This document shows positions 1 through 60,012 of a DNA stretch of 64,000 nt, piece after piece. This DNA is from an uncultured virus (IMG/VR IMGVR_UViG_3300030110_004015) (taxonomy: Duplodnaviria; Heunggongvirae; Uroviricota; Caudoviricetes; Crassvirales). The stretch lies in the IMG/VR virus record IMGVR_UViG_3300030110_004015, one strand, 5' to 3'. The translations under genes were made by a program, and so were the position numbers. Below the pieces are notes generated by a model, which was not told where the DNA came from, searched no databases, and worked only from the letters and a program-made list of their open reading frames with translations. How positions within the stretch are numbered: position 1 is the stretch's first letter; the number at the start of each line of letters is the position of its first letter.

Positions 1-156
1 ACCACGTTCCCAATCATAGCTAGCACATTGTGCTTTCTGATTCTTAGGTTTCCTAGTATGAGAGCATAACGGGCATACACCTTGTGTTGCACCCTCTTTT
101 AGGTCGTGTTGATTGAACTTATCAATCAAAAATCCATTGATCTCTTCAGTGCTCAT
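1..156 (-). CDS. Primase(-helicase) N-terminal zinc-binding domain, partial (runs off window edge)
   Basis: Manual translation MSTEEINGFLIDKFNQHDLKEGATQGVCPLCSHTRKPKNQKAQCASYDWERG; CPxC motif; follows SSB in a replication cluster. Confidence 0.6.
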   Translation of the reverse strand, partial: MSTEEINGFLIDKFNQHDLKEGATQGVCPLCSHTRKPKNQKAQCASYDWERG

Positions 157-465
157 TTAAAATGGTAAATCATCTGCTGGAGCGGCAGCTGGCGCGGCTT
201 GAGCAGGAGCACCATCACGTGGTGCTGGTTCAACATTTTGACCATTAGTCCAAACTACTTTTACATTACCAAGGTAAGTCTTAGCTGCCTTCGCATCTCT
301 TTCTTCCTTAGTTTGTTCTACAACTACAGGACCTTGATTACCAAACTGATCTAGCTCGTCATTCAAAGTAATTGTAATTGGTAAATATGAACCTTTTTTA
401 CCTTTAAAGATTTTGTCTTTAGGTATAGCTGTAAGGTTTATACTTGCTTTAATAATACTTGCCAT
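157..465 (-). CDS. Single-stranded DNA-binding protein-like
   Basis: Small beta-rich core, Ala/Pro linker and acidic C-terminal DDLPF tail; next to ERF and exonuclease. Confidence 0.6.
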   Translation of the reverse strand: MASIIKASINLTAIPKDKIFKGKKGSYLPITITLNDELDQFGNQGPVVVEQTKEERDAKAAKTYLGNVKVVWTNGQNVEPAPRDGAPAQAAPAAAPADDLPF

Positions 466-3820: not shown

Positions 3821-3856
3821 TAGCCTGTTACTATTTATTCTTAGGGGCTGTTGTCA
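3812..3856. promoter_or_regulatory. Operator-like inverted repeat (TGACAnnAGCC half-sites)
   Basis: 3812-3833 matches the reverse complement of 11459-11480 at 20/22 positions. Confidence 0.55.
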
Positions 3857-5716: not shown

Positions 5717-5735
5717 TTGTTCGTATTTGTTTTGT
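5706..5735 (-). promoter_or_regulatory. Class I (early) promoter-like motif
   Basis: ACAAAACAAATACGA-N9-GATAAT. Confidence 0.6.
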
Positions 5736-21663: not shown

Positions 21664-21886
21664 AGAACTTATTAACGTTGCTAAAGAAAAAATTATTACT
21701 AACACAGAAGATGATGTTTCTGCTGATAGATTAAAAAATGCTGCTGCAACTAAAAAACTAGCTATATTTGACGCATTCGAAATACTTAATAGAATCCAAG
21801 AAGAAGAAAACATTTTGGAAGGTAAAGAGGTTGAAGAGAAAAAGACCACGGTTTTTAAAGGATTCGCTGAAGGAAGATCAAAATGA
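21608..21886 (+). CDS. Putative terminase small subunit (start MNIKET)
   Basis: Small helical ORF overlapping the terminase large subunit start. Confidence 0.55.
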   Translation: MNIKETKKLIIQAGHRAVEELINVAKEKIITNTEDDVSADRLKNAAATKKLAIFDAFEILNRIQEEENILEGKEVEEKKTTVFKGFAEGRSK

Positions 21887-38300: not shown

Positions 38301-41300
38301 AATGGGTGGACCAAGTGGAGCGCCTGTTCACAAAGCTTTTTATAATTTAAATAGTTATTGGAACGCAAGTGATGGAGCTGGAGGTGGACTAGATACTCAA
38401 CCAGATGTTGTTGATAGAACTGATAGTGGTAACTTTTATCACGCGAGTAATAACCCTCTTGCATATATTGGTTTACATGAAAGAGGTTTAAATCATACCA
38501 CGCTAGAAATTATAGCTCCTTATTCAGGCGATGAAGGTGATAGACCAATGAGTAATAATCCAGCTGTATGGGAAACAGAACCAAAAGAAGATGTTGGTTT
38601 AGATATATATCAAGCAGCTAGCCCTACATACCCTATAAACTTACAAAGACATAGAAAAGGTGTTGATAGTAATATTAATTATGACTTTGGCGGTAGAGGA
38701 GAAGAGTATATACCAATAGGTGCAACATGTAAGGTATTTAATTACGTAGGTGGTGGTTACACTGGTTTAGAATCATTTGTTGATGGTGTTAGTGGTAATA
38801 CAATTTATTTAAACTCTCACTTATGGGAAGATTCTCCAGGAGGAACACCTCAGCACGTGCCTGTTGTAGACTCTAATAATGATCCAACAAGACTTATGTT
38901 TACTTGGAAAGGTGAGGGTAATTATTACGGATCACGTCAAGATGATATGTTTGTTGAAGCTCGTATAAGTAGAACTTTTTCAAATAATATTTTAGCTATA
39001 GAGCTTATGTCAGACGTGCATAATGAAAGAAAGTCATTAAGTTACTTTAATTGTTACTCATATGGTAATGGTGTTGAGTCAAATAGAATAAGAGACGATT
39101 ACAATGCTGTTACTATAGACAAAGGTGTTAAAGCTTCTATGCCTTTAGCAGAGCAATATGAAGAAGAAAGAAAAGCTAGTAGTTTAATATTTTCTGGTAT
39201 ATATAATTCTACAAGTGGTATTAATAGAACTAATCAATTTATACAAGCAGAACCTATAACTAAAGATTTAAATCCTATAAATGGTAGTATACAAAAATTA
39301 TTTACTAGAGATACTGATCTAGTCACTTTCTGTGAAAACAAAGTATTTAAAATATTAGCTAAAAAAGATGCTCTATTTAACGCTGATGGTAACACAAATG
39401 TAACATCTAATCAAGCTGTTCTTGGTCAAGCAATACCTTTTAGTGGTGAATATGGAATAGCTAGAAACCCTGAATCGTTTGCATCGGAATCTTATAGAAT
39501 ATATTTTGCTGATAAAATAAGAGGTGCCGTACTTAGATTATCAAGAGATGGTTTAACAAACATATCAGATTATGGTATGAAAGATTGGTTTAAAGATAGA
39601 CTTAAGTTTGCTGATAGAATTGTTGGTAGTTTTGATGATAGAAAAGATGAGTATAATTTAACTATAGAAACTTATAATAGTCCAGAGCCTGAGTTTGTAA
39701 CATTACAGCAAAGTTTTTCATACGGTAATGATAAAACCTTAGCCGGCATGTCAGCTTATACAGTTAGTTATACAGAGTCTAGAAAAGGTTGGGTGAGCTT
39801 TAAAAGTTTTATACAAGAAGATGGTTTTAGTTATAAAAATGATTATTATACTTTTCCTTCAAACATATTTAATAGAACTAAATATACAGGACTTAAATCA
39901 CGTCTAGGGTTTAGATATGGTAACGAGCATGGAAACGCAGAGGTTTGGAAACACCATCAAGATATAAAAATGAGAGGTTTAATAAAAGCAAACGTTTCTA
40001 ACAATACTACTTTGCTTTTACAAATGAAAGACTCTACAAGCACCGCTTCTGATTATCAAGTTGTAAATGGAATGATAATATCTGGTAATGGTATTCCGTT
40101 AGAAACATACGTTACAGCTGTAAATTATGGTAGTCCAATGACTGCCACCGTAACAATATCTAATCCTGTGCATGTGTTTGCAGATGAAGAAGTAATATTA
40201 ACGTCTGCTAGAAATACTTTTTATAATATACCATCTTTTTCTTCTTTAACAGTAATGTTTAATGGTGACCAAGGTAGTGTTAAAAGATTTAAAACATTAA
40301 ATTACGAAGGTACACAAGCTGAAATTACCTACAAAGAAAATAATGTTCAGTATTTATATGACACTAATATCGCTATTGGTCCTAATCAAGGTGTTGGCGC
40401 TGGTGAAATATATTATGATAACTATGCTAAAGATGGTTGGAAAGTAGAAAGCTTAAAAACAGATATGCAAGAAGCGTTGTTATCTGAATTTTTAGATAAA
40501 GAAAACAAATGGTTTAATTACATTAGAGGTCATGCTGATGCGAAGGAAGGTGATTTAATTGATACTGGAGAATTTTCAGCTCAAGGGTTAGGTAGATATG
40601 AATCTATTATTCCAACTCAAGATGTTCAAGGTTGTTTAGATCCTACCGCGGTTAATTATGCTGGTGTTGGTAATACAAATGGAATTGATCCACCTGCTAA
40701 TCTACCTTGTTATAACTGTTGTCTTTATAATGAGGGTTGTTTAGATCCTGCTGCGTCTAACTTTGATCCAACGGCAGATACGTCTTGTGAGAGTTGTTGT
40801 ACATATAAAGAAGGTTGTACAGATCCTTTGTCATTTAATTATGATCCAACCGCTGTTGTTGATGATGGTTCGTGTATATATTGTGTTTATGGATGTACTG
40901 ATGAAAACGCTGACAATTATGATCCGAACGCTACTTGTGGAGATGGAAGTTGTACTTATACTTATGGTTGTACAGACAACACAACTATAGATGGCGCTGG
41001 TATTGGTCTTGATGGTGCGCTTAACTATGACCCATTAGCCACTATGGATGATGGTTCTTGTATTTACTGTTCGTATGGATGTACCGATGCTCTTGCTTCA
41101 AATTATGATCCTAATGCTACTTGTGATGATAACTCATGTGATTTTTGTGTCTATGGTTGTACTGGAAATGGTACCAATCCAAACAACCCACAAACACAAA
41201 CAAATCCAGGTGGTAATAATTATTATGATGTTTTTGGTGATGGAAGTAAAGCTGACAATTATGACGAGCTTGCTACATGTGATGATGGAACCTGTTTATT

Positions 41301-45449: not shown

Positions 45450-47999
45450 ATGGTAGATATAAACGGTAATAAATTATTAAAACCTTCCCCACTGAAAATA
45501 GTAGGCTCTATTATAGGAGCTGGTGTAGGTATTTTTGGCGCTATAAAAGGTGCTAAAGATAAAAAGGCTGCAAGAAAAAAGATGGACGCGGCTCAAAAAG
45601 CTTTAGATAAAAACAAAAAAGATTACGCGGCTATCGATGTGTCTAATCCGTTTAAGGATACAAAGAACCATATGAAAGATATGAAAAACGTTTATGAGGG
45701 TGCTAAAAACGTTTATGCTGGTAAAATGGAAAATAAGTTTGAGGGCCAGAAGAATGCTTTTGAAGGAATGAAAAATAAATTTGAAGGCATGGAAAATGCT
45801 TTTGAAGATCTTACTGTTAACACACAACAAGCAGAGTTTGAAGCTCAACAAAACGCACAAAACCAAGCAAATATATTATCTAGTATGGCTGGAGCTGCAG
45901 GTGGTTCTGGTATAGCGGCATTAGCTCAATCAATGGCTAATCAAGGTGCTTTACAAGCGCAAAAAGCTTCTGCTAGTATTGGTGCTCAAGAAGCCGCTAA
46001 CGCTAAAAAAGCTGCAGAAGCATCTCAAGATATATCTATGAAAACCGCTGAAGAAGCTTCACAGCAACAAACAATGCAAGCTCAAGAACAATCAAGACTT
46101 GACACACAAAAGAATCAAGCTGATATGGATATACAAGCAACGGTTCTTGGTGCTGATGAAAAACTACAAGCCGCTAAACTAGACGAAGCATCTAAACTAC
46201 AAATGGCTGAAAGAGAGGGTGCTGAAAGAGCTGAAATAAGAAAAGGTGAAGGACAAATGTGGGAGGCTGAATCTAAAATGCGTAAAGAAGAAACACTTAT
46301 GTCTCAAAACATGCAAGAAATGAACATGCATCGTGAAGATAAAAACGCCGCTGATAAAGCTATGATGGAAGGTATTGGTGGAGCGGCTAAAGGTATTGGT
46401 GGTATAATAACTGGGTTAAGTGACAAAAGATTAAAAGAAAATATAAGTAAAATAAAATATTCTGATTCTGGTATACCTATTTATACATTTAAATATAAAG
46501 GAGACGATAGAACCTGGATTGGTACTATGGCTCAAGATTTAATTAGACTAGGTAAAGAATACGCTGTAACCAAGGGAGATGATGGTTACTATAGAGTTAA
46601 ATATAATTTAATAGATGTTAACATGGAAGAAATAAAACTACCTTCTCCGTTAAAACAACAAGATCCTGCTCAACAACAATCAGCTGATTTAAACAAAAGC
46701 ATGCAAGATGCTGGTATGGATATATTAGCTGCTGGTGCTGAAGAAAAAGCTTGGGAACAAAGACAGTTAGATATAAGAGCTATTGAGCCTTCTACAATGC
46801 AAGTAAGAAAAAGGCAAGATCAAGAGTTGCGTGAGGAGCAAAAGAAACTTGTAGATTCTGGTGGTGGTAACGAATTAGCACCACAATATATGGATGTTTT
46901 TTATTTAAGAATACAAAACCTTCAAGACGAAATGTATGATGCTTTAAAAAATGATGATAAAAAAGCTGAAAAAGATGTTATGCAAAAATTAGCAATGTTA
47001 GATCAATTACAGCAAATTATAAAAGAAGCTAAACAAGAGTTTTATGCAGATCATTTTGAAGGAGAAAGCCAATTATCAAAATCTGTTTCACAACAGCAAG
47101 TAAGTTTTGCCACGCAAATGTATTGTGAAAACCCTGAATTACGAATAGTATTTGCAGCACAAGGAGATGTTGACTCTGGTAGAAAAGATTATTATGGAGA
47201 TGTCGTTACCTTAGATACTATTTATGCTATAGTTCGTGATTTTGATTTTAATCCTACATTAATACCTATAACGAAAGGTAATAAAGATATGTATATTGTT
47301 GATAAGATGAAAGCTTTAGAATATCAAAACTTTAAAAAAGAACAATATGATTTAGCTACCAAGTCTAGAGAAAGTGGTAGTGAGGCTAAAATAAATTCAG
47401 GCGCAATAAATTATAAAATAGACATGCTATTTGGTCAAAACGACGGGACGGCATCTAAAGAACAAGATCAATTAGTATTAATGTTTGCTTGGGACGACGC
47501 TATACTTCAAGATGGTACTACGTTTAGAAGAGATTTGTATCAGCATCCAGATTTAACTACATTAAACTATGGTAGTTTAGACATGAAAATGCTAGATGCT
47601 AATGGTCAATTATTACCGCTTGGTGTAGAAGATATAAGTCATTGGGGTGATATGATATCTGAAGAAGATAAACTAAAAGTAGTTGACGCTATATTAAATC
47701 AAGATTCACCTTTTTTTGATATAACAATGCTAAGAACATTAATTAAAGAATATTATACATATAAAATAGAAAACGCTTGGTGGAAAGGTATGGGCTTTGA
47801 TGAAGGTAAATTACAAATGATGAGAATGAAAGCTGAAGAACTGGCTAAATCTAGATTTGAAATGGCTAAAGCAGAAGCTGCTGCTAAAGGAGAAAAGAAC
47901 TTCTTGTTTGACGGGGCGTTATATCCTTCAGGTGCTAAAGAAAAATCTATGGAAGAAAAATCAAAAGAAAACGATCAAGATACTAGTTTTGCAGTTTAA
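45450..47999 (+). CDS. Putative ejection/pilot protein with internal peptidase S74 domain
   Basis: Gly-rich hydrophobic N-terminus, Q/A-rich coiled coil, SDKRLKENI...GTMAQDL...DGYYRV, two SPLK motifs. Confidence 0.65.
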   Translation: MVDINGNKLLKPSPLKIVGSIIGAGVGIFGAIKGAKDKKAARKKMDAAQKALDKNKKDYAAIDVSNPFKDTKNHMKDMKNVYEGAKNVYAGKMENKFEGQKNAFEGMKNKFEGMENAFEDLTVNTQQAEFEAQQNAQNQANILSSMAGAAGGSGIAALAQSMANQGALQAQKASASIGAQEAANAKKAAEASQDISMKTAEEASQQQTMQAQEQSRLDTQKNQADMDIQATVLGADEKLQAAKLDEASKLQMAEREGAERAEIRKGEGQMWEAESKMRKEETLMSQNMQEMNMHREDKNAADKAMMEGIGGAAKGIGGIITGLSDKRLKENISKIKYSDSGIPIYTFKYKGDDRTWIGTMAQDLIRLGKEYAVTKGDDGYYRVKYNLIDVNMEEIKLPSPLKQQDPAQQQSADLNKSMQDAGMDILAAGAEEKAWEQRQLDIRAIEPSTMQVRKRQDQELREEQKKLVDSGGGNELAPQYMDVFYLRIQNLQDEMYDALKNDDKKAEKDVMQKLAMLDQLQQIIKEAKQEFYADHFEGESQLSKSVSQQQVSFATQMYCENPELRIVFAAQGDVDSGRKDYYGDVVTLDTIYAIVRDFDFNPTLIPITKGNKDMYIVDKMKALEYQNFKKEQYDLATKSRESGSEAKINSGAINYKIDMLFGQNDGTASKEQDQLVLMFAWDDAILQDGTTFRRDLYQHPDLTTLNYGSLDMKMLDANGQLLPLGVEDISHWGDMISEEDKLKVVDAILNQDSPFFDITMLRTLIKEYYTYKIENAWWKGMGFDEGKLQMMRMKAEELAKSRFEMAKAEAAAKGEKNFLFDGALYPSGAKEKSMEEKSKENDQDTSFAV

Positions 48000-48011: not shown

Positions 48012-51000
48012 ATGTCATTATTAAAAATATATAAAACAGAAGACGGAAAAGAACATAAAGTTGGCCCTACAAGCGAAGCAAGGTTTTTAGAAGAAAATCC
48101 TAGCGCACAGTTTGTTAGGGATGATTATATATTTACTAAAAGTGCTGATGTAAATGAATTCATGGTTAAACCTACGTTTGAGCTTGAAAACCCTTTAACA
48201 AAAATATTAGAAAATAAAAAAGTTAAAGAAAAAACTAGCAATAACCAGTTTGGATATGGTATACACGAAGTACAAAAAGGTACTGATCCAAGTGGAAATC
48301 CCATCATGGAAACAAAACAAGGATGGTTTAAACAAGAAGTAGAAGAGGAAGGTGTTGGTGTATTAAAAGAACCAAAAGTAAATTACACACATGTAGATAG
48401 AGACGATGTACCTAGTGATGTTATAGAAAAACATAACAACGGTGTTTTAGATACATATTTAAGTTCTATAAAAAACAATGAAGATCCTAGAGAAAACGGT
48501 GTAACCACAGAGATGATGATAGATGTTTTTCAACCGTCAAAGGAACAAAAAGTAAAAAATAACACAGAGGCAACAAAAAAAATAGATGAATATTTACAGA
48601 TAAAAAACACACCTAGACCAGAAGCCGATTTAGATACAAAAGAAATAATGTCGAAAAACATTCGCCCTATAGACCCAGGCGATGGAGGGGCTATCGTTGA
48701 TCACAGCTTGCATGAAAAAAATACTAGTTGGCATGCTAATCAAGAAAAAAATGAAAGATCTTACACCGGTAAAAAGATAAAAGAAGCTAGACAAATTTTA
48801 GAAAATAAAAAAAATAAAAATAAAGACTTTACATATACAGAAGATGATGTTCACGTACAGGCAATAGAACTAATGAATAGAGATATTGAAATAGAACACA
48901 TGAATAATGTTATCATAGAAGCTATAGAAAGATCTGATGAAGAAGATGGTACTTGGGGAGATATAGATAAAACAGATTTTCAAAAAGAACTATACGAAGA
49001 TATACAGGAGCATAAAAAAACACTAGCGAAAGTTGATAAAAACGGTGTGCCTGAATATATAATGAAACATAAAAGATCATTAGATACTACTGTAAAACTA
49101 ATTCAAAATAATGATACCTGGTTGTTAGAAAATGGAAATGAATTAAAAGCGTTTAACGAAAAATATGTTCCTAAGTTTAAAGAAATAGATGATCAATTAG
49201 AATCAGAAGAGTATAACGGTATAACAAATGTTTTTCAAACTTTACAAGGTATTAATAAAAAAATAGAAGCATATGTTGAGGATGGTTTAGATGAAAACTC
49301 TGATTCAGAAGATTTAAAAGCTTATAATGCTTTAGTTTCTGAGTATACTCAATTGTATAATCAAAATAAAGATAAATTAGAAAAATATAGGAATTTATAT
49401 GCTAGTAGAGAAAAATTAGTATTTGAATATACACAAGAAAAAGAAAGTAAATCTTTTGGTGAAACAGGGGATAAAACATTTCAACAAGCTGCAGAAGCAT
49501 ACAACACTGTACGAAATAAAAACAATTTATTAAGGCAAGGTTATAACAAACAACTTGTTCATACTAAGCATGATATTGAGAATAATGAAGGCGATATTAA
49601 CGATATACCTATCATAGAGTCTGCACTTAAAAGAAACAATCATAATGTCGCTTTATGGGGTGCTACGCTTCTTGATTGGGGTGTTACGGCTGCGTATTCA
49701 TTAGAACAGTTAGTAACAGATGCACCTATATATCTTAGTGAATTAGCTTTAAAAGAACTAGGTTACGACAAAGAGTTTAGTGAAATGAATGATATTGAAA
49801 AATTATTCGCAACTACTCATAAAATTTGGAAAGGACAAAGCGAGCAAAAAAGAAATGCTTATAATAGTTTTAGAGAAGAGTTACTCTCAAATGTTAAAGA
49901 ACCTCCTCAATGGGGTGATCAAGGTACAGATGAAGGTAATTGGGGAGAGTATATAGCTTATCAATTAGTTAATTTTGCTCCTCAAGCAGCTATGCTAGTA
50001 ACAATGCCGCAATCATCACTATCTATATTATCAAGCATGGCTGCTGGTCAAAAATATATAGAATTAAGTGATAAAAATAAAAGCGGTGCAGAATTAACTT
50101 CTTATCAAATACTAGGTTCTATGATGGCTGCTGCTGGGGCTGAGTATTATTCAGAAAAATACACACAAAAACTTATAAATAAAACGTGGGGAAACAAATC
50201 TAATGTTGTTGAGCGAGTTGGTTTTATAGATGGTTATAAAAGATTTATTAAAAATATGCCAGGAGCAGCGGCTGATAGAGTTGGTGAAGGAGGTAGTGAA
50301 GTATTAGCTACTATATTTGGAGATAATTTACCAGCTATAATGTTTCAAGGTGATAATACCGTTGGTGTTTTTGATAATGTAGATGAATCTTTTTTCAATG
50401 GTCTTGTTATGGCTGAGGCTATGAAAATACCTTCTACATTTAAACATGTTGTGACGCCATTTATGACGCCTAAAAACAAAGATCTTATAACATCAAAGAC
50501 AAAAGAATTAATGGATTTAGAGTTTCAATTACAAACTAATGAAACTATATCTGATGCGGCTAGAGAAGCTATTGAGAAAAAAATAGAAAAAATAACAAGC
50601 GAAGTTGGTGATATATTATACGAAACTATTGATAGAGTTGATGATATGACCAACAAAGAAAAGCGTGCTATAATGGACGCTACTAAAGAGGTTACAAAAG
50701 AAAAAGCTATAGCAGAAGATATAGCGCAAGATCAATCTATACCTATTGAAACTAGAAAAAAATTAATAAAAGAATCTCAAGACAGAATCAATTTATCTCA
50801 CAAAAAGAGAATTGATTTAATGAAAGACGTAAAAATAAGACAAGATTTAGAAGTTACTGAAGCTGCCGCTAAAAAAATAGGTACAAAAACAAATGTTGTA
50901 AACGATAGAGGTGATTTTGTAAGAAGATTTAAAAAGTCATATCCACAAAGTACAGAAACAAATCCTGGTTTACTAGACGCGTATTATGATCCGAATACAA

Positions 51001-54000
51001 ATGAAATGATCATAAATAAAACTAGAGCTAAAGAAATAGGTGCTGTTAGTGTTGGTTCGCATGAGTTGTTACATGCTATAATGAGAAACTCATTGAGAGA
51101 TAAAAAGAGCGGTAGAATGTCTCAAGAAGGTGAAGAGCTAGTAAATAACTTTTTAGGATCTTTATCTTCTCAAGAAAGAGCTATTATTGAAAAAAGAATA
51201 GAAGATAATTATAAATATGATAGTTACGAAGTTGGTGAAGACGGTGTTAGAAAAGGTGTTGGTGAGGCAAAGCCATTTGCTGAGTACGGTGAAGAATATT
51301 TAAATTCATACGTTGATGCTATAAGAAAAGGTGAGATAAGAACACCTGAATCTACATTTGAAAGGATGGGTGAAAAAATTGGTGATTGGTTTAAAACAAA
51401 AAAAGGTTTTGAAAATATAGAGTTTGAAGGTTTTGAAAGCGTGAGAGATTTTTTAAGAACATATACTTCTGAAGTAAAAGCTGGTGATGTAAGCCAAAGA
51501 ATATTAGATATTGCAGGGCCAATAACAAGAGAAAGAACGCCTAATTATAAAATGGCAGCTTCAAAAACATCACCAAACGCTTTTGAAAATGCTGAAGTTG
51601 TAAGTGATTTAGGTTTAAAAGGTGAAACAGCAAAAATAGTAGAAAGAAATAAAGCCATAGAAGAACGTATAATAAGAGAAGGTGAAACAGATGCTGATGG
51701 CAACGTGATGGCGTCTACTAGAATGCAACAAGAGCTTGCTCGTAATAATCTACCTAGAGCTTTTGCTTTAGCTAGACAAGCTGCTGGTAAAGGTAATGAT
51801 CTTACTCTTGAAGAAGGTTTAAAGATGAACGATGTTTCTGAGTGGTTTGGTGAATATAGTTTAAAACTTACTGAACTAGCTAGAACATATAGGCCTATAG
51901 TTAAAGATAAAGATGGCAACTTAAAAAGAATACCATTTGGTGCTTACATGAACTCTTTACTACCAAGAAAATATTCTGGTATATTAAATAGATTAAAAAG
52001 CAAAGTGCAAGCTTCTAGTATGGCGGAAGAAACTACCGCTAAAGAAGTTGGTAAACAAGCCGCTCCTACATATGAGCTTTCTAATAATGAGGTTGAAGGT
52101 AAAAAGGTAGCTTTAAATACTATAGGGCAAAACGAAGTGCAACAACAATTAGTAAATATAGTTAAAGGTATTCCTTTTCTTTCTAAACTTCGTAAATATA
52201 AAGAAGTTAAAAGCGAGTTAGTATCTCATAATAAAGCTAAGAAAAAATCAAATAGAAAACCAACTGGTAAATTGTATCCAGCACTAGAAGCTGTGTCAGC
52301 TATATTTGGTATAGATCCAATGAGAATAATAGAAGAAAAAGATCTAGACACAATGCAGAGAAAAGCTGCTCAAGACGCAATATTAAAAAATACTAACGAA
52401 ATAATATCTATGATGCCGTTTGGTACTACCGCTAGTGGTGATGCCACCGGTATAGCCAACACTAAGTTAGGAATATTTTACAAAAAAGGACAAAGAACAA
52501 AAATGAGTGCTACCGGTACTGGTAAAGGATTAGCAACGCAGGTAAAGCAAAATATAGACCCTAATAAATTTAGAGAATTAGTTGGTCTTGTAAAAGGTGG
52601 TCGTGTTAACAATACATCTGTTGATGGTGCTATTAGAGCTATAGTAGTACAAGTAGCAACTATAGCTTCTAATCAGGCTATAAGACAAACGTATGGTCCA
52701 GAAACACTACCATTAAAAGATGGTAAAGCTTCAGCTATGTATTCTAAAACATATTCAAAGGCTGATAGCGCTATACTTCAAGAGCTTGGTCAACTTAGTA
52801 GAATGATGAAAGAAGAGCAAGGACTATGGCCAGCTATAGTAAAAAGATTTGGCTACACGCCTGTAAATATGAAAAGCGAAGGTGGTAGATACGATATGGA
52901 AAACTGGGTATTTAGTAGTTTAACCCAATATTTACCATTGTCTTTTTTTCAACATAGCGGCACTTGGACAGGAACTTCGGCTGGAGCCTTAGAAGCTGAT
53001 GGTACGGAAATTAGATTACATAAAGGTAACTACTTATATAAAAACACAAAAGAATTAAACGAGGCTATAGACTACTATATACAAGACGGTAGAGCTTGGA
53101 AAGGAGAAACTATGTCAGAAAAAGACAAGCAAGACATAGCTAACGCTCTTAAAAGAGTTTCGTTAAACGAATCTAGTCTTGCGGACACTGAGTTTAAAGC
53201 TAGTAAAAAAAGAGGCTTTGAATTAATTTGGAAGCAACTAGACAAAATGGTAGAAGACAATCCTGATAATTTACCATATATTGCAGCAATGTTAAGTTCT
53301 GCTAGTGCTTACCAAGGTCATTTTATGAGAACTGGATCTGTAAACGAGTTTGCAAATTTAGAAGATGGAAAAACAGTAGAAGAGCATCAACAACCCGCAA
53401 GTGATTTAGCTAAGTTTTTATTTAATAGATTAGCTGAAAGAAGATTGTTTGGTAAAAATGGAACTTTTAAAAACGCTGTAAAAGGTTATCAACAAGGAAA
53501 ACTACTTGATGTTGATGATAAAAAACTTAAACTTGGAAAAGAGTGGAGTTATCAGTCAGATGCTGGTGAATATATGTATCCTATATTTATGGGTACAATG
53601 CCTATATGGGTTAGATACTTTAACCCAAATGTTAATAACAATAAAGGAGGTATAAATCCTAACGCGTATAAATTATCTAATGGAAATACTATAGCAGAAG
53701 AATTTGGTGTTGGCGTGAGCAAAAATCTACAAACACCTACTGTTATAGCTGAACAACAAGATTTATTATATAGAATATTTACAAACCAAGTAACACAAAA
53801 ACAAGCTACAAAAGCTATAAATAATTTTGCTAATCTTAAAATAAAAGAAAGTGTTGGTGATCAGGCTATACTAGACAATGCTATCGCTGCATCTAGGACA
53901 ACAGGAGATCCAAAGGGTATTACAGTGCTAGATTTTGATGACACATTAGCTACGACAAAATCTGGAGTTAGAGCTAGAATACCAAATCCTACTGGAGATC

Positions 54001-57000
54001 CTAAACCAAGAAGAAAAGTTATATTTTTAGCAGGTGGAGCTGGTAGTGGAAAATCAAACGTTGTAAGCAAATTAGGATTAGAAAATCAAGGGTTTAAAAT
54101 AGTAAATCAAGATATATCTTTAGAGTGGTTAAAAAAGAATAATGGTTTACCAGAAAATATGAACGATCTTACTAAAGAACAAAAAAGCACGTTAGGTTCT
54201 TTGCAACATCAAGCGAGAGGTATTGCTAAAAGAAAAATGATGAAATACCAAGGTCAAGGTGATGGCGTTGTTGTTGATGGTACAGGTGGATCACTAAGCG
54301 TTATGACAAAACTTGTTGAGCAATTTGAGGCTGATGGATATGATGTTAGTATGTTATTTGTAGGAACCTCTGTTGAAACCGCTTTAGAAAGAAATGCTAA
54401 TAGAAAAGAAAGATCTTTGTTAGATGTAATAGTTAGAAAAAACCACGAAGCTGTACAAGGTAATAAAAAAGGATTTAAATCAATATTTGGTAATAACTTC
54501 ATGGAAGTAAGCACTGATAAGTTATCGCAACAAGATCCTATGCCTAAAAATCTTGTTAACAAAATGAATGACTTTGTTAGTGGTTATGAAAAAAGAAGAT
54601 TAGATGCCGAGCAGTTTGCTTCTGAAGGAGCTGATATATTAGAACAGGGTGGTGAGTTTGATTTTTCAGAATTTAATATAGTTGTAGAAGGACAAACAGC
54701 ACCACTGTTTAATAAAGCAATGAAACTACAAAAAAAGTTTGGTAGTAAAGATATGTTTGTTTTAACAGCAAGACCATCAGAATCAGCACCACACATATAT
54801 GAATTTTTAAAAGCAAATGGTTTAAATATACCTTTGAAAAATATAACTGGACTTGCTAATTCTACACCTGAAGCAAAAGCTTTATGGATGGCTGGTAAAG
54901 TTGGTGAAGGTTATAATGATTTTTACTTTGCTGACGATGCTTTGCAAAATGTGCAAGCTGTGCAAAATATGTTAGATCAGTTTGATGTTAAATCAAAAGT
55001 GCAACAAGCTAAGGTTAACTTTAGTAAAACAATGAACGATTCATTTAATGATATACTACAAGATGTAACCGGTATTGAGTCTGAAAAAAGATTTGGAGCT
55101 ACTAAAGCTAGAAAACGTGGAGCGAGTAAAGGTAAGTTTAGATTTTTTATACCACCATCACACGAGGATTTTGTAGGCTTATTGTATAATTTTATGGGTA
55201 AAGGTGAGCAGGGTAATAAACATAGAGACTTTTTTGAAGAAGCTTTAGTTAGACCTTTAAATAGAGCAAATAGAGAATATGATACTGCAAGACAAACTAT
55301 TGCTAACGATTATAAAGCTTTAAATAAACAGTTTCCAAGTATTAAAAAGAAGTTTAATAAAAAAACACCAGATGGTGATTTTACTTTTCAAGATGCTATA
55401 AGAGTTTATTTATGGGACAAGCATGGTTATAGTATTCCAGGTTTAAGTAAACCAGATCAAGAGGCTTTGGTTAATATAGTAAGGTCTGACGCTGAATTAA
55501 AAACATATGCAGACGCTTTAAATATAATATCTAAAAGAAGCGATTACGTTAATCCTACAGAGGGTTGGGATTCTGGAGATATAAGAATGGATTTAGACGA
55601 TGCTACCGGTAGAGTTGGTAGAGCAGAATATTTTGCCGAGTTTAACGAAAACGCTGAAGTAATATTTTCTGAAGAAAATTTAAATAAAATAGAAGCTGCT
55701 TATGGTAAAAACGTTAGAAGTGCTTTAGAAGATATGCTTTATAGAATTAAAACTGGTAGAAATAGACCTAGTGGTCAAAATGCTATTGTAAATAGATTTA
55801 TGAACTATTTAAATGGATCTGTTGGTTCTGTTATGTTTTTTAATATGAGATCTGCTTTACTACAGCAAATGTCTATGGTTAACTATATAAACTTTGCTGA
55901 TAACAATATATTTGCAGCTGCCAAAGCTTTTGCTAATCAACCTCAATACTGGAAAGATTGGGCATTTATATTCAACTCTGATATGATTAAACAAAGAAGA
56001 GGTGGTATTAGAACAGATGTTAACGGTAATGAACTTGCTCAAGCTGTTAGTAGGTCAAGACACCCAATGAGAACTTTAGTTTCTAAATTATTAGAACTAG
56101 GTTTTTTACCAACACAAATTGGTGATAATATAGCTATTGCAACCGGTGGTGCTACATATTATAGAAATAGAATAAACAAGTATATAAAAGATGGTATGAG
56201 CAAAAAAGAAGCTGAAGCGGCGGCTTTTACTGATTTTCAAAATATAACTCAATCAACACAGCAGTCAGCTAGACCTGATATGGTTTCACAGCAGCAAGCC
56301 TCTCCACTTGGTAAGGTTATATTAAATTTTCAAAACGTAACATCACAGTTTAATAGATTAGGTAAAAAAGCTTTTCAAGATATATATAATAGAAGAATAA
56401 CACCTCCTAATAGTACGCAATTACAGAGTGATGTTTCTAATGCCTCTAGAATAGCTTATTACTTTGCAATACAAAACGCTATATTCTATAGTTTACAAAC
56501 AGCGTTGTTTGCCATGATGTTTGATGATGATGAAGAAGATGAAAGATTTTTAAAGAAAAAAGAGAGAATGATAAATGGTAGTATTGACTCTGTATTGAGA
56601 GGTACTGGTGTTATGGGTGCCGTTATATCTACGTTAAAAAATATGGCTATTAAATTTGCAGCGCAAAGAGATGTTAAGTATAATCCAGACGAAAGCTCTG
56701 TGTTAATGGAAATGTTAAATGTTTCTCCAGTTGTAGGTATTAAAGCTAGAAAAATAACTAATGCTGAAAAAACTCTTAACTATAATAAAAAAGTTATTAA
56801 CCACATGGGTGATTTTGATATTGACAACCCACAGTGGTCAGCAGTTACAAATTATGTTGAAGCGTTTACGAATGTTCCTGTTAACAGATTATATAATAAA
56901 ACACAAAACATTAGACAGGCTTTAAATAATCAAAATGAATCTTGGCAAAGAGCTTTAATGTTTTTAGGTTGGAGTCAGTATAATCTTGGTATTGAAAATG

Positions 57001-57341
57001 TTAAAATACAAGACGTTAAAGAAGAGATAAAAATAGAAAATAAAAAAGTTAAAGAACAAAAGAAAATTCAAAAGAAATTAGAAAAAGAAAAAGTTAACGA
57101 AGCGGTAGTTGAAGAAAACAAAAAGAAGAGCGAAAAAGATGGTATTTGTGCTGCTGTAACTAGAAGCGGTAAAAGATGTAAAACAAAAGTAGTTGAAGGA
57201 AAAACTTTTTGTACAGTACATGAAAAAGTAGAAAAAAGCGAAACTGGTGAGAAAAAACAATGTAAAAAAATAAAGTCAGACGGTAAGAGATGTAAAATGC
57301 AAACTAATTCAAAGTCAGGTTTGTGTTACTATCATGATTAA
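48012..57341 (+). CDS. Giant polyvalent (putative injected cargo) protein: zincin, sigma-r2-like, HAD with inserted P-loop kinase, C-terminal C3H zinc fingers
   Basis: HELLH; DFDDT/LTAR/FADD; GGAGSGKS, VVDGT; two C-x8-RC-x9-C-x2-H repeats. Confidence 0.75.
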   Translation: MSLLKIYKTEDGKEHKVGPTSEARFLEENPSAQFVRDDYIFTKSADVNEFMVKPTFELENPLTKILENKKVKEKTSNNQFGYGIHEVQKGTDPSGNPIMETKQGWFKQEVEEEGVGVLKEPKVNYTHVDRDDVPSDVIEKHNNGVLDTYLSSIKNNEDPRENGVTTEMMIDVFQPSKEQKVKNNTEATKKIDEYLQIKNTPRPEADLDTKEIMSKNIRPIDPGDGGAIVDHSLHEKNTSWHANQEKNERSYTGKKIKEARQILENKKNKNKDFTYTEDDVHVQAIELMNRDIEIEHMNNVIIEAIERSDEEDGTWGDIDKTDFQKELYEDIQEHKKTLAKVDKNGVPEYIMKHKRSLDTTVKLIQNNDTWLLENGNELKAFNEKYVPKFKEIDDQLESEEYNGITNVFQTLQGINKKIEAYVEDGLDENSDSEDLKAYNALVSEYTQLYNQNKDKLEKYRNLYASREKLVFEYTQEKESKSFGETGDKTFQQAAEAYNTVRNKNNLLRQGYNKQLVHTKHDIENNEGDINDIPIIESALKRNNHNVALWGATLLDWGVTAAYSLEQLVTDAPIYLSELALKELGYDKEFSEMNDIEKLFATTHKIWKGQSEQKRNAYNSFREELLSNVKEPPQWGDQGTDEGNWGEYIAYQLVNFAPQAAMLVTMPQSSLSILSSMAAGQKYIELSDKNKSGAELTSYQILGSMMAAAGAEYYSEKYTQKLINKTWGNKSNVVERVGFIDGYKRFIKNMPGAAADRVGEGGSEVLATIFGDNLPAIMFQGDNTVGVFDNVDESFFNGLVMAEAMKIPSTFKHVVTPFMTPKNKDLITSKTKELMDLEFQLQTNETISDAAREAIEKKIEKITSEVGDILYETIDRVDDMTNKEKRAIMDATKEVTKEKAIAEDIAQDQSIPIETRKKLIKESQDRINLSHKKRIDLMKDVKIRQDLEVTEAAAKKIGTKTNVVNDRGDFVRRFKKSYPQSTETNPGLLDAYYDPNTNEMIINKTRAKEIGAVSVGSHELLHAIMRNSLRDKKSGRMSQEGEELVNNFLGSLSSQERAIIEKRIEDNYKYDSYEVGEDGVRKGVGEAKPFAEYGEEYLNSYVDAIRKGEIRTPESTFERMGEKIGDWFKTKKGFENIEFEGFESVRDFLRTYTSEVKAGDVSQRILDIAGPITRERTPNYKMAASKTSPNAFENAEVVSDLGLKGETAKIVERNKAIEERIIREGETDADGNVMASTRMQQELARNNLPRAFALARQAAGKGNDLTLEEGLKMNDVSEWFGEYSLKLTELARTYRPIVKDKDGNLKRIPFGAYMNSLLPRKYSGILNRLKSKVQASSMAEETTAKEVGKQAAPTYELSNNEVEGKKVALNTIGQNEVQQQLVNIVKGIPFLSKLRKYKEVKSELVSHNKAKKKSNRKPTGKLYPALEAVSAIFGIDPMRIIEEKDLDTMQRKAAQDAILKNTNEIISMMPFGTTASGDATGIANTKLGIFYKKGQRTKMSATGTGKGLATQVKQNIDPNKFRELVGLVKGGRVNNTSVDGAIRAIVVQVATIASNQAIRQTYGPETLPLKDGKASAMYSKTYSKADSAILQELGQLSRMMKEEQGLWPAIVKRFGYTPVNMKSEGGRYDMENWVFSSLTQYLPLSFFQHSGTWTGTSAGALEADGTEIRLHKGNYLYKNTKELNEAIDYYIQDGRAWKGETMSEKDKQDIANALKRVSLNESSLADTEFKASKKRGFELIWKQLDKMVEDNPDNLPYIAAMLSSASAYQGHFMRTGSVNEFANLEDGKTVEEHQQPASDLAKFLFNRLAERRLFGKNGTFKNAVKGYQQGKLLDVDDKKLKLGKEWSYQSDAGEYMYPIFMGTMPIWVRYFNPNVNNNKGGINPNAYKLSNGNTIAEEFGVGVSKNLQTPTVIAEQQDLLYRIFTNQVTQKQATKAINNFANLKIKESVGDQAILDNAIAASRTTGDPKGITVLDFDDTLATTKSGVRARIPNPTGDPKPRRKVIFLAGGAGSGKSNVVSKLGLENQGFKIVNQDISLEWLKKNNGLPENMNDLTKEQKSTLGSLQHQARGIAKRKMMKYQGQGDGVVVDGTGGSLSVMTKLVEQFEADGYDVSMLFVGTSVETALERNANRKERSLLDVIVRKNHEAVQGNKKGFKSIFGNNFMEVSTDKLSQQDPMPKNLVNKMNDFVSGYEKRRLDAEQFASEGADILEQGGEFDFSEFNIVVEGQTAPLFNKAMKLQKKFGSKDMFVLTARPSESAPHIYEFLKANGLNIPLKNITGLANSTPEAKALWMAGKVGEGYNDFYFADDALQNVQAVQNMLDQFDVKSKVQQAKVNFSKTMNDSFNDILQDVTGIESEKRFGATKARKRGASKGKFRFFIPPSHEDFVGLLYNFMGKGEQGNKHRDFFEEALVRPLNRANREYDTARQTIANDYKALNKQFPSIKKKFNKKTPDGDFTFQDAIRVYLWDKHGYSIPGLSKPDQEALVNIVRSDAELKTYADALNIISKRSDYVNPTEGWDSGDIRMDLDDATGRVGRAEYFAEFNENAEVIFSEENLNKIEAAYGKNVRSALEDMLYRIKTGRNRPSGQNAIVNRFMNYLNGSVGSVMFFNMRSALLQQMSMVNYINFADNNIFAAAKAFANQPQYWKDWAFIFNSDMIKQRRGGIRTDVNGNELAQAVSRSRHPMRTLVSKLLELGFLPTQIGDNIAIATGGATYYRNRINKYIKDGMSKKEAEAAAFTDFQNITQSTQQSARPDMVSQQQASPLGKVILNFQNVTSQFNRLGKKAFQDIYNRRITPPNSTQLQSDVSNASRIAYYFAIQNAIFYSLQTALFAMMFDDDEEDERFLKKKERMINGSIDSVLRGTGVMGAVISTLKNMAIKFAAQRDVKYNPDESSVLMEMLNVSPVVGIKARKITNAEKTLNYNKKVINHMGDFDIDNPQWSAVTNYVEAFTNVPVNRLYNKTQNIRQALNNQNESWQRALMFLGWSQYNLGIENVKIQDVKEEIKIENKKVKEQKKIQKKLEKEKVNEAVVEENKKKSEKDGICAAVTRSGKRCKTKVVEGKTFCTVHEKVEKSETGEKKQCKKIKSDGKRCKMQTNSKSGLCYYHD

Positions 57342-58743: not shown

Positions 58744-59097
58744 ATGGAAAGACAAGATATGTCAAAGGTGTTGTATGTGTTGTTAATGATATTAGTATTT
58801 ATGGCATCACAAGCACTTGCACAAATAGAAGTAAAACATTTTAATGCTGGATGGAATAACGTTAACAGCGTTAAATGGTTTATGGATTTAGAAGATTGTA
58901 AAACCAAAGGAACGACAGATATAGCTAAAAATCCAAAAATAGCTAAAAAATATAAAATAGCAGTTGTGCCTACTATTATTATATTTAAAGACGGAGAAGA
59001 GGTTGCTAGGTTTCAAGCAGATTTATCATTTAAAATGGTAGCAACTAGAGAAGAAGTACAAGAAGAAATAGATAATCAATTAATGAGCGATTTTTAA
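58744..59097 (+). CDS. Exported thioredoxin-fold protein lacking CxxC
   Basis: Signal peptide; FNAGWN in place of WCxxC; KYKIAVVPTIIIFKDGEEVARF. Confidence 0.7.
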   Translation: MERQDMSKVLYVLLMILVFMASQALAQIEVKHFNAGWNNVNSVKWFMDLEDCKTKGTTDIAKNPKIAKKYKIAVVPTIIIFKDGEEVARFQADLSFKMVATREEVQEEIDNQLMSDF

Positions 59098-59098
59098 T

Positions 59099-59497
59099 AT
59101 GGGATATGTAATGAAAGGTTTTGGTGGGTTTGGTAACTCACCAGCTAAGAAAAAAGGACCTTGTTGGAAAGGTTATGAAATGGTAGGTATGAAAAAGAAA
59201 GGTAGTAGAACGGTTCCTAACTGTGTTCCTTCACCTGCTAAAAACAGTAATGAACCTAGAAAAACAACTAAAGGGCCTGGTAGAAATTTTAGGACTACAG
59301 AAGAAGGAGCGGGTATGACTGCAAAAGGTGTTGCTGCATACAAAAGAAAAAACCCTGGTAGTAAATTACAAACAGCTGTAACTGGTGATGTAAAACCTGG
59401 TAGTAAAGCAGCTGGTAGAAGAAAATCGTTTTGTGCTAGATCAAAAGGTTGGACTGGCGAAAGAGGTAAAGCCGCAAGAGCAAGATGGAAGTGTTAA
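59099..59497 (+). CDS. Basic SPxK-module protein
   Basis: MGYVMKGFGGFGNSPAK; PCWKGY...VPNCVP; SPAK; RRKSFCARS. Confidence 0.65.
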   Translation: MGYVMKGFGGFGNSPAKKKGPCWKGYEMVGMKKKGSRTVPNCVPSPAKNSNEPRKTTKGPGRNFRTTEEGAGMTAKGVAAYKRKNPGSKLQTAVTGDVKPGSKAAGRRKSFCARSKGWTGERGKAARARWKC

Positions 59498-60012
59498 AAG
59501 GTTTTCCTATAAAAAAATATTTAGATAAAAAACCACCTAGTAACAACTCATTTACTACTATGCAAGAGTTAAAGGAGTTAAACAAGGTGCCTATGAATAA
59601 AAAATTTGTAAGACAAAAAGATGATGTTGAAAAATGTTTTAGCTCTATAGTTGATGATAAGCCTCTTATAAGACAATTAATGGACGAAACAGTTCCTATT
59701 ATAACAAAAATAAAACATCATCACAAAAGACCTAGACCTAAAAAACTTGCAAAAAAATACGGTATGAATATGAAAGACATTGAGATGCCATCAATGAAAA
59801 CACCTTCATACCCATCAGGACACTCTGCTCAAGGTGTATTAGTTGGCATGGCTTTAAGTAAAAAATTTCCAAGCAAAAAGAAACAACTAATGAGTATGGC
59901 AAAAGATATTTCTAAAAGTAGAAACGTTGCGCATGCACATTATAAATCTGATTCTGTTCTTGGTGAAAAAATAGGCAAAGACATGTATAATTATATAAAA
60001 GATAAACTATGA
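59485..60012 (+). CDS. PAP2-superfamily phosphatase
   Basis: K....RPRP, PSYPSGHS, SR....AHY.SD. Confidence 0.85.
   Translation: MEVLKGFPIKKYLDKKPPSNNSFTTMQELKELNKVPMNKKFVRQKDDVEKCFSSIVDDKPLIRQLMDETVPIITKIKHHHKRPRPKKLAKKYGMNMKDIEMPSMKTPSYPSGHSAQGVLVGMALSKKFPSKKKQLMSMAKDISKSRNVAHAHYKSDSVLGEKIGKDMYNYIKDKL

Follow-up and report, generated by a model that had tools for sequence, protein, structure and literature searches.

Does this phage DNA carry a P-loop kinase nested inside a HAD phosphatase, and what would such an enzyme do within a giant protein encoded among virion genes? The locus lies in a stretch of 64,000 nucleotides from an uncultured marine virus, here called the window. A module at 53898-55016 (residues 1963-2335 of a 3109-aa ORF) had been predicted from motif strings, and on re-translation all of these are found in frame 1, inside one ORF. 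They follow each other in the order HAD motif I, a P-loop kinase of ~200 aa, and HAD motifs II-IV.

The module and its setting

The features are given below. Single motifs are placed by re-translation of the window, and residues are numbered from the start of the module unless the giant protein is named.

48012..57341, + strand: giant ORF (P0002), carrier of the kinase/HAD module; single uninterrupted frame, 3109 aa
53898..53987, + strand: N-terminal HAD piece, strand 1 with motif I and the first flap-hairpin strand (model strand 24-29); from model, translation and alignment
53931-53945, + strand: HAD motif I, DFDDT
53988..54584, + strand: inserted P-loop kinase, segment residues 31-229; from Pfam AAA_33/Zeta_toxin, fold match and conservation in 59 nested homologues
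54033-54056, + strand: kinase Walker A, GGAGSGKS
54111-54113, + strand: candidate catalytic Asp72 of the kinase
54276-54293, + strand: Walker-B-like DGTGGS of the kinase
54390-54413, + strand: kinase lid, RNANRKER
54585..55016, + strand: C-terminal HAD piece, second flap strand (model strand 230-235), a small helix/strand element and motifs II-IV; from model, fold matches and alignment
54765-54773, + strand: HAD motif II, T-A-R
54876-54878, + strand: HAD motif III, Lys
54918-54938, + strand: HAD motif IV, DFYFADD (N-D..D-D)
55017..57011, + strand: conserved C-terminal region of the giant protein, constant companion of the HAD domain; from BLASTP coverage of homologues

The giant ORF stands in a structural gene block, downstream of terminase, portal, virion-protein and tail-fibre genes, and follows a tail-fibre-like gene (neighbours named by PHROGs and Pfam). 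Residues 644-888 of the giant protein weakly match (24% identity, E 3e-6) a 3694-aa Elemovirus ORF that is annotated 'structural protein' and has the same gene position. A gene for a PAP2 lipid-phosphatase-like protein lies 2 kb downstream. The same phage encodes an ATP-dependent DNA ligase (4516-5379); an RNA ligase was not found among the window's ORFs scanned. By BLASTP, residues 2200-3000 of the giant protein are covered by 82-92 of the 93 giant homologues, and most of the N-terminal two thirds by just 0-44 of them, and this part is thus variable. Pfam has no family for the conserved C-terminal region.

A kinase within a hairpin

The original prediction held that the kinase is nested in the HAD domain and not in tandem with it as in T4 Pnkp, and it named structure prediction and a search for homologues lacking the insert as checks. 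Both checks, together with fold matches, agree with nesting. An alignment-based AlphaFold model of the module (125 sequences; pLDDT 94.9, pTM 0.85) unites the two HAD pieces as one fold. Model strands 24-29 and 230-235 bracket the kinase at 40-228, and the range matched when the model is superposed on single HAD domains, 4..373, spans the insert.

Homologues without the kinase are many, and they are continuous through the kinase site (..TKSLVKFTRPDGTTGTLNAEQYA..); the insert of ~200 residues stands where they have a 6-residue hairpin turn. Because these homologues read straight across the site, the kinase is a true insertion. As modelled, the module is one compact two-enzyme unit, in which the flap beta-hairpin of the HAD domain is opened at its turn and receives a complete P-loop kinase. 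Strand pairing, as judged by the secondary-structure string together with the homologues, puts the kinase at the flap hairpin's tip, i.e. at the classical C1 cap site directly after motif I.

The phosphatase half

Is the divided HAD domain an enzyme? The hallmarks of the superfamily are present: a Rossmannoid core, DxDx[TV], the motif II Thr, the motif III Lys and the acidic pair of motif IV. The catalytic residues are kept in at least 97% of sequences: D12 in 88 of 88 sequences, D14 in 89 of 89 and T16 in 88 of 89 for motif I (alignment A2); T290 and R292 each in 105/105 and K327 in 101/101 for motifs II and III; and D346 in 98/100 and D347 in 97/99 for motif IV, where D341 is also present. 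The domain is a predicted Mg-dependent phosphatase with Asp12 of DFDDT as nucleophile.

The best structural match is the T4 Pnkp 3'-phosphatase (5uj0_B: Z 13.3, rmsd 2.4 A, 127/142 residues), followed by other HADs with Z 11.1, 11.0 and 10.9; the lower matches include capsule-synthesis HAD domains (Z 11.0) and the lipid-binding LNS2 domain of Nir2 (Z 10.9). Read by eye, T-A-R of motif II parallels S-G-R of T4 Pnkp, and ADD of motif IV parallels IDD. Sequence comparison with the PNK 3'-phosphatases gives no detectable homology: the HAD profile matches 0 PDB sequences even with an E limit of 10, and hhalign against T4 Pnkp aligns motif I alone, with a probability of 8.5%. Pfam finds no significant match in the HAD part of the query (DUF2608 alone, a HAD-clan family, E 0.12). 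Insert-less homologues match DUF2608 (18/30 members) and PF12710 HAD (4/30), but no PNK phosphatase family; two of the nine scanned exceed the curated Pfam cut-off.

Could the module be a decayed or purely structural remnant with no enzymatic role? The missing Pfam HAD match of the query would fit, as would the finding that the 14 giant homologues scanned have no other recognisable enzyme domain. However, the catalytic residues of both folds are near-invariant among homologues that are 45-80% identical, and canonical folds are predicted with high confidence. A remnant is extremely improbable.

The kinase half and its substrate

The P-loop kinase that had been read from motifs is beyond chance, as Pfam finds AAA_33 in the module segment (E 5.4e-11, 43.4 bits, cut-off 27) and, level with it, Zeta_toxin (PF06414; E 9.3e-11, 42.0 bits, cut-off 22.3). 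Zeta_toxin is also above the Pfam cut-off in 13 of the 14 giant homologues scanned. The top structural match is the kinase of Clostridium thermocellum Pnkp (CthPnkp; 4gp6_A: Z 16.9, rmsd 2.9, 165 aligned, model 35..230), and Foldseek gives the same leading entries (CthPnkp kinase E 5.8e-8, TM 0.73). Just below CthPnkp stand the kinase folds 2rhm (Z 16.1) and PSTK (Z 15.7); T4 Pnk (1ly1) and zeta toxin (1gvn_B) both have Z 13.9. Whole-chain matches are T4 Pnkp (1ltq_A, Z 14.0, 244 aligned) and Pnkp1 (4xrp_A, Z 13.1, 259 aligned). The likeness to Pnkp proposed at the outset thus holds at the fold level, for both halves.

The segment has the elements of a PNK-type kinase, i.e. K52/S53 of Walker A, D72 as candidate general base, and the lid arginines R165, R169 and R172. 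At least 95% conservation is seen for K52, D72, D127-G-T-G, R165, R169 and R172 in 59 nested homologues; S53, the Walker A Ser/Thr, is replaced by Gly in 7/31 homologues. The lid, ERNANRKER, lines up with ERNKNRTDR of CthPnkp. The Walker-B-like DGTG, on the other hand, is closer to the substrate-binding motif EGTGR of zeta toxin than to the PNK D(T/A)TN. The acceptor side also differs from that of T4 Pnkp: Arg38, three residues after the catalytic Asp, is reported to bind the acceptor nucleotide in the T4 enzyme (PMC2831316), and its counterpart is Leu in 34/34 homologues, with the register set by the N-x-D motif. The computed pI is 9.6 for the kinase segment, which is basic, and 5.1 for the acidic HAD.

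What, then, might be phosphorylated? The substrate could be a small phospho-metabolite. A zeta-toxin/AvrRxo1-like kinase would act on a sugar hydroxyl of UDP-GlcNAc, NAD or another nucleotide, the HAD would dephosphorylate nucleotides or sugar phosphates, and pools of cell-wall precursors, cofactors or signalling nucleotides would be disturbed as infection begins. The Zeta_toxin match and the missing acceptor Arg point this way, and so does phmmer against the PDB, where zeta toxin is the best match (E 0.019) with DGTGG aligned on EGTGR. Zeta, PezT and AvrRxo1 structures align with Z 12.6-13.9, a close homologue bears the automatic UniProt name 'UDP-N-acetylglucosamine kinase', and zeta-toxin-like kinases are reported among the modules of phage and conjugative polyvalent proteins (PMC5512222). 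Yet polynucleotide- and tRNA-directed kinases score ~3 Z units above zeta, and the lid fits RNxNRxxR of CthPnkp, whereas the zeta alignment ends ahead of the lid. The Arg of EGTGR is itself absent, the motif here being DGTG[GA]S with G/A at 131 and S at 132. The top HAD match, moreover, acts on polynucleotides and has an open active site. There is no small gene for a zeta-type partner antitoxin upstream, and the kinase is embedded in the giant ORF. A small-metabolite substrate is regarded as a tentative and somewhat unlikely alternative.

Rearrangements among relatives

Relatives of the module fall into 2609 clusters when grouped at 50% identity, and the majority are proteins of 2000-4000 aa. 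Nearly all are giant proteins on uncultured viral contigs and almost wholly unannotated; none was found among the 50,697 deposited phage genomes searched. HAD without kinase is the majority form (49/87 giants; 48/80 IMG/VR loci), and thus the HAD domain has a job independent of this kinase. The kinase is found in other places as well: in homologue P0242 the same kinase (39-44% identity) follows the HAD in tandem, and in P0176, P0183, P0184 and P0185 it lies ~800-1100 residues upstream of the HAD. Tandem and distant copies fall among nested ones in the kinase tree, with at least three changes forced, and an AU test against a single nested clade gives p 0.029. Kinase and HAD are therefore repeatedly associated, in differing arrangements.

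What is the independent job of the HAD? It might act on a macromolecule other than nucleic acid (e.g. phosphoproteins, or phosphates of envelope phospholipid or lipopolysaccharide). The kinase would then be no second repair activity but a dispensable cap, which adjusts how substrates reach the site or serves to bind nucleotide. The frequency of HAD alone is in keeping with this, and the flap tolerates other inserts, 45 aa in P0109 and a non-kinase domain of ~145 aa in P0184. The Nir2 LNS2 and capsule-synthesis matches, the PAP2-like gene downstream and the Gly at the Walker A Ser position in 7/31 kinases can be read in the same sense. Such a role is nevertheless quite improbable: the conserved set K52, D72, D127, R165, R169 and R172 argues for a working kinase, and the same kinase is retained when relocated within the protein.

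Accessory domains found so far in the HAD flap are the P-loop kinase, a domain that also occurs in the kinase protein of Agrobacterium phage Atu_ph07, and the short 45-aa element. Could the flap be a plug-in socket, by which giant virion-module proteins of marine phages swap whole accessory domains, the kinase moving between nested, tandem and distant positions? Both sites of a nested pair would then face one cleft, and the 5'-OH and 3'-phosphate of a single break would be healed together in one binding event. Arriving ready-made with the phage genome, the enzyme would counteract in advance those host nucleases that strike before phage genes are expressed. This broader proposal is unlikely as it stands.

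A possible role in end healing

The likeliest function is Pnkp-like end healing by a 5'-kinase and 3'-phosphatase, perhaps delivered by the virion, with a probability of roughly one half. In this scheme a 5'-OH end would receive the gamma-phosphate of an NTP from the kinase, and a 3'-phosphate would be taken off by the HAD. RNA or DNA that host nucleases have cut to 5'-OH and 3'-phosphate ends would thereby be made fit for sealing by a ligase of the phage or the host. Since the giant protein is encoded among virion genes, the module would be a late product, probably packaged in the particle and so at hand at genome entry, where an anti-defence role may be envisaged.

If the giant proteins do enter with the DNA, many marine phages would bring a phosphatase at entry, and often a kinase too. 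Delivery would also offer a testable route to the role of giant 'dark' virion proteins. The series of nested, tandem, distant and absent kinases offers a ready natural test of what domain insertion does to a bifunctional enzyme.

Comparison with known systems

End healing by kinase plus HAD occurs in T4 Pnkp, bacterial Pnkp1 and mammalian PNKP, to our knowledge always with the domains in tandem. T4 Pnkp (PseT; 1ltq, 1ly1, 5uj0) is like the module in joining a 5'-kinase-type P-loop fold and a DxDxT HAD phosphatase in one polypeptide, and both have Walker A, an Asp after strand 2, an RNxxR lid and the [ST]-x-R of motif II. However, the T4 enzyme has an N-terminal kinase followed by a C-terminal HAD, whereas in the module the kinase is nested within the phosphatase; Arg38 has no counterpart in the module, and sequence likeness is not detectable beyond motif I. 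T4 Pnkp is a free early enzyme of 301 aa, the module part of a 3109-aa structural-block protein.

The kinase of CthPnkp (4gp6, 4mde), the best fold match, shares the lid ERNxNRxxR in an alignable form. Its partners are a metallophosphoesterase and a ligase-like domain, whereas the module kinase is joined to a HAD. Where CthPnkp has the pair Asp38/Arg41 the module has Asp/Leu, and the Walker B of CthPnkp is DATN as against DGTG. Capnocytophaga Pnkp1 (4xrp) can be aligned over both domains (Z 13.1). Zeta and PezT toxins (PF06414) are alignable over the N-terminal two thirds, with GxxGxGK and (D/E)GTG, but their structural score is lower than that of the polynucleotide kinases, and the module kinase differs in having no epsilon-type antitoxin, no Arg after GTG, and a fused phosphatase.

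A kinase at the cap-insertion site of a HAD domain was not found described in the literature searched. The P-type ATPases are the standard example of nucleotide binding by a domain set into the C1 cap position: their N domain enters the HAD-fold phosphorylation domain. The N domain, however, does not belong to the P-loop kinases, and the phosphate is accepted by the HAD Asp itself.

Among very large proteins, the polyvalent proteins of phages and conjugative elements are the nearest comparison. In PMC5512222 they are multi-module proteins thought to be delivered with incoming DNA; the word 'phosphatase' is absent from its main text. Pfam finds no polyvalent hallmark domains such as MuF in the giant protein or the 14 giant homologues scanned. 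The giant protein resembles the polyvalent proteins, as that paper portrays them, in its great size and many modules, here with a variable part and a conserved anchor region.

A kinase nested in a HAD phosphatase

The module lies within one uninterrupted giant open reading frame; its residues are numbered below along the segment itself.

48012-57341 (+), giant ORF, 3109 aa, uninterrupted
53898-55016 (+), module, residues 1963-2335 of the giant protein

The original prediction placed a P-loop kinase inside a HAD phosphatase here. The motif strings that it quoted are all present, and re-translation confirmed the coordinates of each motif. In the query, Pfam finds no HAD beyond DUF2608 at E 0.12, a family that we take to belong to the HAD clan. 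Homologues that lack the kinase insert, which were to be looked for, do exist and run continuously from motif I to motif II. One of these, P0052, reads ..VLDFDDTLATTKSLVKFTRPDGTTGTLNAEQYA..FDFSEF..VLTARP.. through motif I, flap and motif II, and in the alignment the six-residue turn of the kinase-free proteins corresponds to approximately 200 residues in the query. DUF2608 is matched in 18 of 30 insert-less homologues (best E 1.1e-5) and the HAD family PF12710 in 4 of 30; two of the nine scanned exceed the curated cut-off.

Do the flanking parts form one fold? A single-sequence AlphaFold model (pLDDT 37.5) was discarded; with 125 aligned sequences, mean pLDDT was 94.9 and pTM 0.85. In the latter model, strand 7-11 ends at motif I and is followed by strand 24-29, the kinase (40-228), strand 230-235, a helix and short strand, and then strand 286-290, which ends at motif II. 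As strands 24-29 and 230-235 flank the kinase, its predicted place is the tip of the hairpin just after motif I, presumably the flap, or C1 cap-insertion point. In a structural search, single HAD domains superpose on model residues 4-373, i.e. spanning the insert. The highest-scoring of them, the T4 Pnkp 3'-phosphatase domain (5uj0_B), reaches Z 13.3 at an rmsd of 2.4 Å over 127 of 142 residues, with further HADs at Z 11.1 (2ybd), 11.0 (8a0c), 10.9 (9jtz) and 10.6 (4jdp). By sequence, the HAD profile has no match among PDB sequences at E up to 10, and its hhalign match to T4 Pnkp is limited to motif I. The model, the HAD matches across the insert and the insert-less homologues bear out the assembly of the flanking parts into one HAD fold.

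Conservation points to function in both halves. Among 59 nested homologues, residues conserved at 95% or more comprise D12, D14, D15, T16, T290, A291, R292, K327 and N340 of the HAD, G46, G49, G51, K52, D72, D127-G-T-G and S132 of the kinase, and R165, N166, R169, E171 and R172 of the kinase lid. In non-gap cells of the 125-sequence alignment, D12 (88/88), D14 (89/89), T290 and R292 (105/105 each) and K327 (101/101) are invariant, and the motif IV region is nearly so (D341 97/101, D346 98/100, D347 97/99). Residue 53, which follows the Walker A Lys and is Ser in the query, varies among 31 homologues, of which 22 have Ser, 2 have Thr and 7 have Gly; some copies with Gly (e.g. GSGKG in the homologues P0003 and P0004) may be impaired or bind nucleotide differently. 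The module is a compact, conserved kinase-in-phosphatase that is apparently active.

Full-text searches of the openly accessible literature gave no account of a HAD with a kinase nested in it. A paper on polyvalent proteins (PMC5512222) mentions zeta-like kinases, and the word 'phosphatase' is absent from its main text; its passages likewise describe no such nesting.

The giant protein and its genome

The giant gene follows the structural genes:

21883-24102, terminase large subunit (phrog_6681, E 5.7e-171)
24105-26522, portal
32398-43122 (+), second giant ORF of the same structural block, 3574 aa, no Pfam family; phrog_14478 'virion structural protein', E 3.6e-123, in four stretches
45450-47999, tail-fibre-like gene with a Peptidase_S74 chaperone domain, next to which comes the giant ORF

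Several further 'virion structural protein' families are present among the ORFs of this block; by its gene content, the window is a piece of a tailed-phage genome. No tRNA genes are found within it. The terminase shares 65% identity with that of uncultured podovirus MW202828.1 and approximately 46% with those of Flavobacterium 'elemo' phages; its matches total 87 records, Cellulophaga, Tenacibaculum and Maribacter phages among them. Judged by these matches, the host is probably a marine or aquatic flavobacterium.

When the whole 3109 aa are compared by BLASTP with 93 giant homologues, residues 2200-3000 (the C-terminal piece of the HAD and approximately 700 residues beyond) are covered in 82-92 of them, and the N-terminal two thirds mostly in 0-44. 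Judged by this coverage, the protein has a constant back and a variable front, with the HAD at their junction. Besides the module, Pfam shows only weak C-terminal Cys/His motifs (DUF5763, E 0.076), and in 14 giant homologues the kinase is the sole domain, detected in 13. PHROGs gave no family with the whole protein as query, and NCBIfam nothing useful. In the ESM Atlas, the two regions flanking the module fall in unnamed viral clusters only, the upstream one at a score of 0.75, below the lead threshold; in clusters of the C-terminal region, 11-27% of members carry DUF5763. The idea that the C-terminal region has clear transmembrane helices was dropped, as no 19-residue stretch reached 1.4 in a hydropathy scan.

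A weak match (24% identity, E 3e-6) links residues 644-888 of the giant protein to an Elemo-type 3694-aa ORF annotated 'structural protein', which has an equivalent gene position in 66 Flavobacterium phage records. This match and the position of the gene are the evidence that the giant protein may be packaged in the virion.

Other features of the protein and the window are the following:

51060-51074 (+), HELLH (HExxH, zincin-like) motif at giant ORF residue 1017; the surrounding stretch, residues 1001-1150, is common to approximately 38 of 93 giant homologues and has no Pfam match
57147-57338 (+), two Cys/His-rich repeats at the C-terminal end, residues 3046-3109 (NCBIfam GvpO_arch_Nterm E 1.1e-6, below cut-off)
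58744-59097 (+), thioredoxin-like ORF just downstream of the giant gene, E 3.4e-5
59485-60012 (+), PAP2-superfamily (lipid phosphate phosphatase-like) ORF, also just downstream, E 8.9e-9
643-6427 (-) and 14562-16124 (+), early region: PDDEXK-like DUF3799, ERF recombinase, sigma-70-like factor, pyrimidine-dimer glycosylase-like ORF, glutaredoxin, GroEL-like chaperonin and an NT5C-type 5'-nucleotidase, a second HAD-type enzyme

Distribution and history of the insert

The family is large. A full-library HMMER search gave 2609 cluster representatives (E up to 1e-3), of which 798 reach 1e-30 or lower; the 150 listed are mostly of 2000-4000 aa. IMG/VR relatives number 185, of which 80 were retained. 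The HAD part is absent from 50,697 deposited phage genomes (tblastn with the segment and the C-terminal 1446 aa). Nine records have kinase-only matches (Melnitz, HTVC008M, Atu_ph07, RsoM2USA), and the Atu_ph07 protein, read through, has no HAD motifs. Exact peptide patterns found no relative in prokaryotes (one GTDB genome per species), a scan sensitive to close relatives only.

Table. Spacing between HAD motifs I and II in 252 proteins
70-79 residues: 121 proteins, no P-loop between motifs
approximately 124 residues: 1 protein (P0109), no P-loop, 45-aa insert
approximately 220 residues: 1 protein (P0184), no P-loop, non-kinase insert of approximately 145 aa
270-289 residues: 58 proteins, P-loop between motifs
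one or both motifs missing: 71 proteins, mostly fragments

Table. Architectures, from lists ranked by score to the kinase-bearing query, so that nested forms are over-represented
87 proteins of at least 2000 aa with both motifs: HAD alone 49, nested kinase 33, kinase elsewhere in the protein 5
80 IMG/VR loci (approximately 10 kb each side): HAD alone 48, nested kinase 32, kinase elsewhere 0

Kinases placed elsewhere include that of P0176 (HAD at 2043-2205, a 43%-identical kinase at 1033-1224) and that of P0242, where the kinase (2032-2217) directly follows the HAD (1838-2007). Did the insertion happen once? In a tree of 61 kinase rows, for which the Atu_ph07 and HTVC008M kinases served as outgroup, 'elsewhere' kinases are intermixed with nested ones, and well-supported branches force at least three changes; a tree constrained to keep the nested kinases in one group is worse by 40.7 log-likelihood units (AU p 0.029). 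A HAD tree (FastTree, 173 rows, 158 columns) has 10 changes between nested and not nested, at least five of them forced. Both trees speak against one ancient insertion with vertical descent. Because the HAD columns are mostly C-terminal to the insert, the pattern in the HAD tree may be explained equally well by within-gene recombination or by repeated gain and loss.

Residues 2142-2202 of P0184, part of its non-kinase insert, are 36% identical over 61 residues (pairwise E 6e-6) to residues 513-568 of the Atu_ph07 protein (779 aa, phrog_12810, L084:2221-4557), in the domain next after its kinase. P0109 has its 45-aa insert at the same flap site. The flap thus appears to take up, time and again, modules that accompany this kinase. 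The base composition of the query insert is not distinct (GC 0.31-0.35 vs 0.29-0.37 around it).

The kinase and its possible role

Pfam assigns segment residues 36-174 to AAA_33 (E 5.4e-11, 43.4 bits, cut-off 27) and to Zeta_toxin (E 9.3e-11, 42.0 bits, cut-off 22.3). The PHROGs matches of the segment alone are phrog_12810 (E 9.5e-21) and, annotated 'polynucleotide kinase', phrog_505 (E 8.2e-8).

Table. Structural matches to the kinase, model residues 35-230, among PDB representatives
Clostridium thermocellum polynucleotide kinase (4gp6_A): Z 16.9, rmsd 2.9, 165 aligned; best match
Putative kinase (2rhm): Z 16.1
Archaeal phosphoseryl-tRNA kinase (3a4l): Z 15.7
T4 Pnk (1ly1): Z 13.9
Zeta toxin (1gvn_B): Z 13.9
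Kti12: Z 13.7

The Foldseek top entries agree (4gp6_B, E 5.8e-8, TM 0.73 on target). In sequence, the lid ALERNANRKER pairs with CQERNKNRTDR of CthPnkp, and for the N-terminal two thirds the best alignment is with zeta toxin (DGTGG vs EGTGR). Pfam and phmmer affinities to zeta toxin argue for a zeta-toxin-like kinase that acts on a small molecule, as does the missing acceptor Arg; this is a serious rival, which we rate as unlikely on balance.

Pnkp-like end healing would be the best explanation of the module, with a probability of roughly 0.5. The kinase half would phosphorylate 5'-OH ends, the HAD half would remove the 3'-phosphate, and a ligase would be required for final sealing of the healed ends. 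End healing is favoured because the best solved counterparts of both halves are polynucleotide kinase-phosphatases, because the PNK-type lid is kept and the kinase half is basic (pI 9.6), and because kinase and HAD stay together in three different arrangements. Is a ligase at hand? One candidate was found:

4516-5379, small ATP-dependent DNA ligase of the early region (Pfam DNA_ligase_A_M, E 1.9e-14, plus OB domain)

No RNA ligase was found among the window ORFs scanned, the window being perhaps less than the whole genome. Among cultured phages, the closest kinase is the stand-alone gp129 of Pelagibacter phage HTVC008M (33% identity), which has a DUF6267 gene on one side and a cytidylyltransferase-like/DUF5824 gene on the other (L085:1209-5402). 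Phrog_455 spans both neighbours, and the two genes are therefore fused in some phages. The DUF6267 translation has K-W-D-G and E-G-Y-V motifs that, by eye, are reminiscent of nucleotidyl-transferase ligases. DUF6267 as a ligase was set aside, with no phmmer match in the PDB and no paper found that has the term DUF6267.

Comparison with known systems

Both domains of the module are matched by the whole T4 Pnkp chain (1ltq_A, Z 14.0, 244 aligned) and by Pnkp1 of the Pnkp1/Rnl/Hen1 complex (4xrp_A, Z 13.1, 259 aligned).

Table. Motifs of T4 Pnkp and of the module
Walker A: GCPGSGKS vs GGAGSGKS
Catalytic Asp region: NRDDYR vs VNQDISL
Walker-B-like: SDTN vs DGTG
Lid: RNSKR vs RNANRKER
HAD motif II: VVSGR vs VLTAR
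HAD motif IV: AIDD vs FADD

By motif register (N-x-D), Asp72 of the module fits the catalytic Asp35 of T4 Pnkp. Three residues further on, where T4 Pnkp has its acceptor Arg (Arg38; PMC2831316), Leu is found in 34 of 34 homologues, and this substitution is the main argument against a bona fide polynucleotide kinase.
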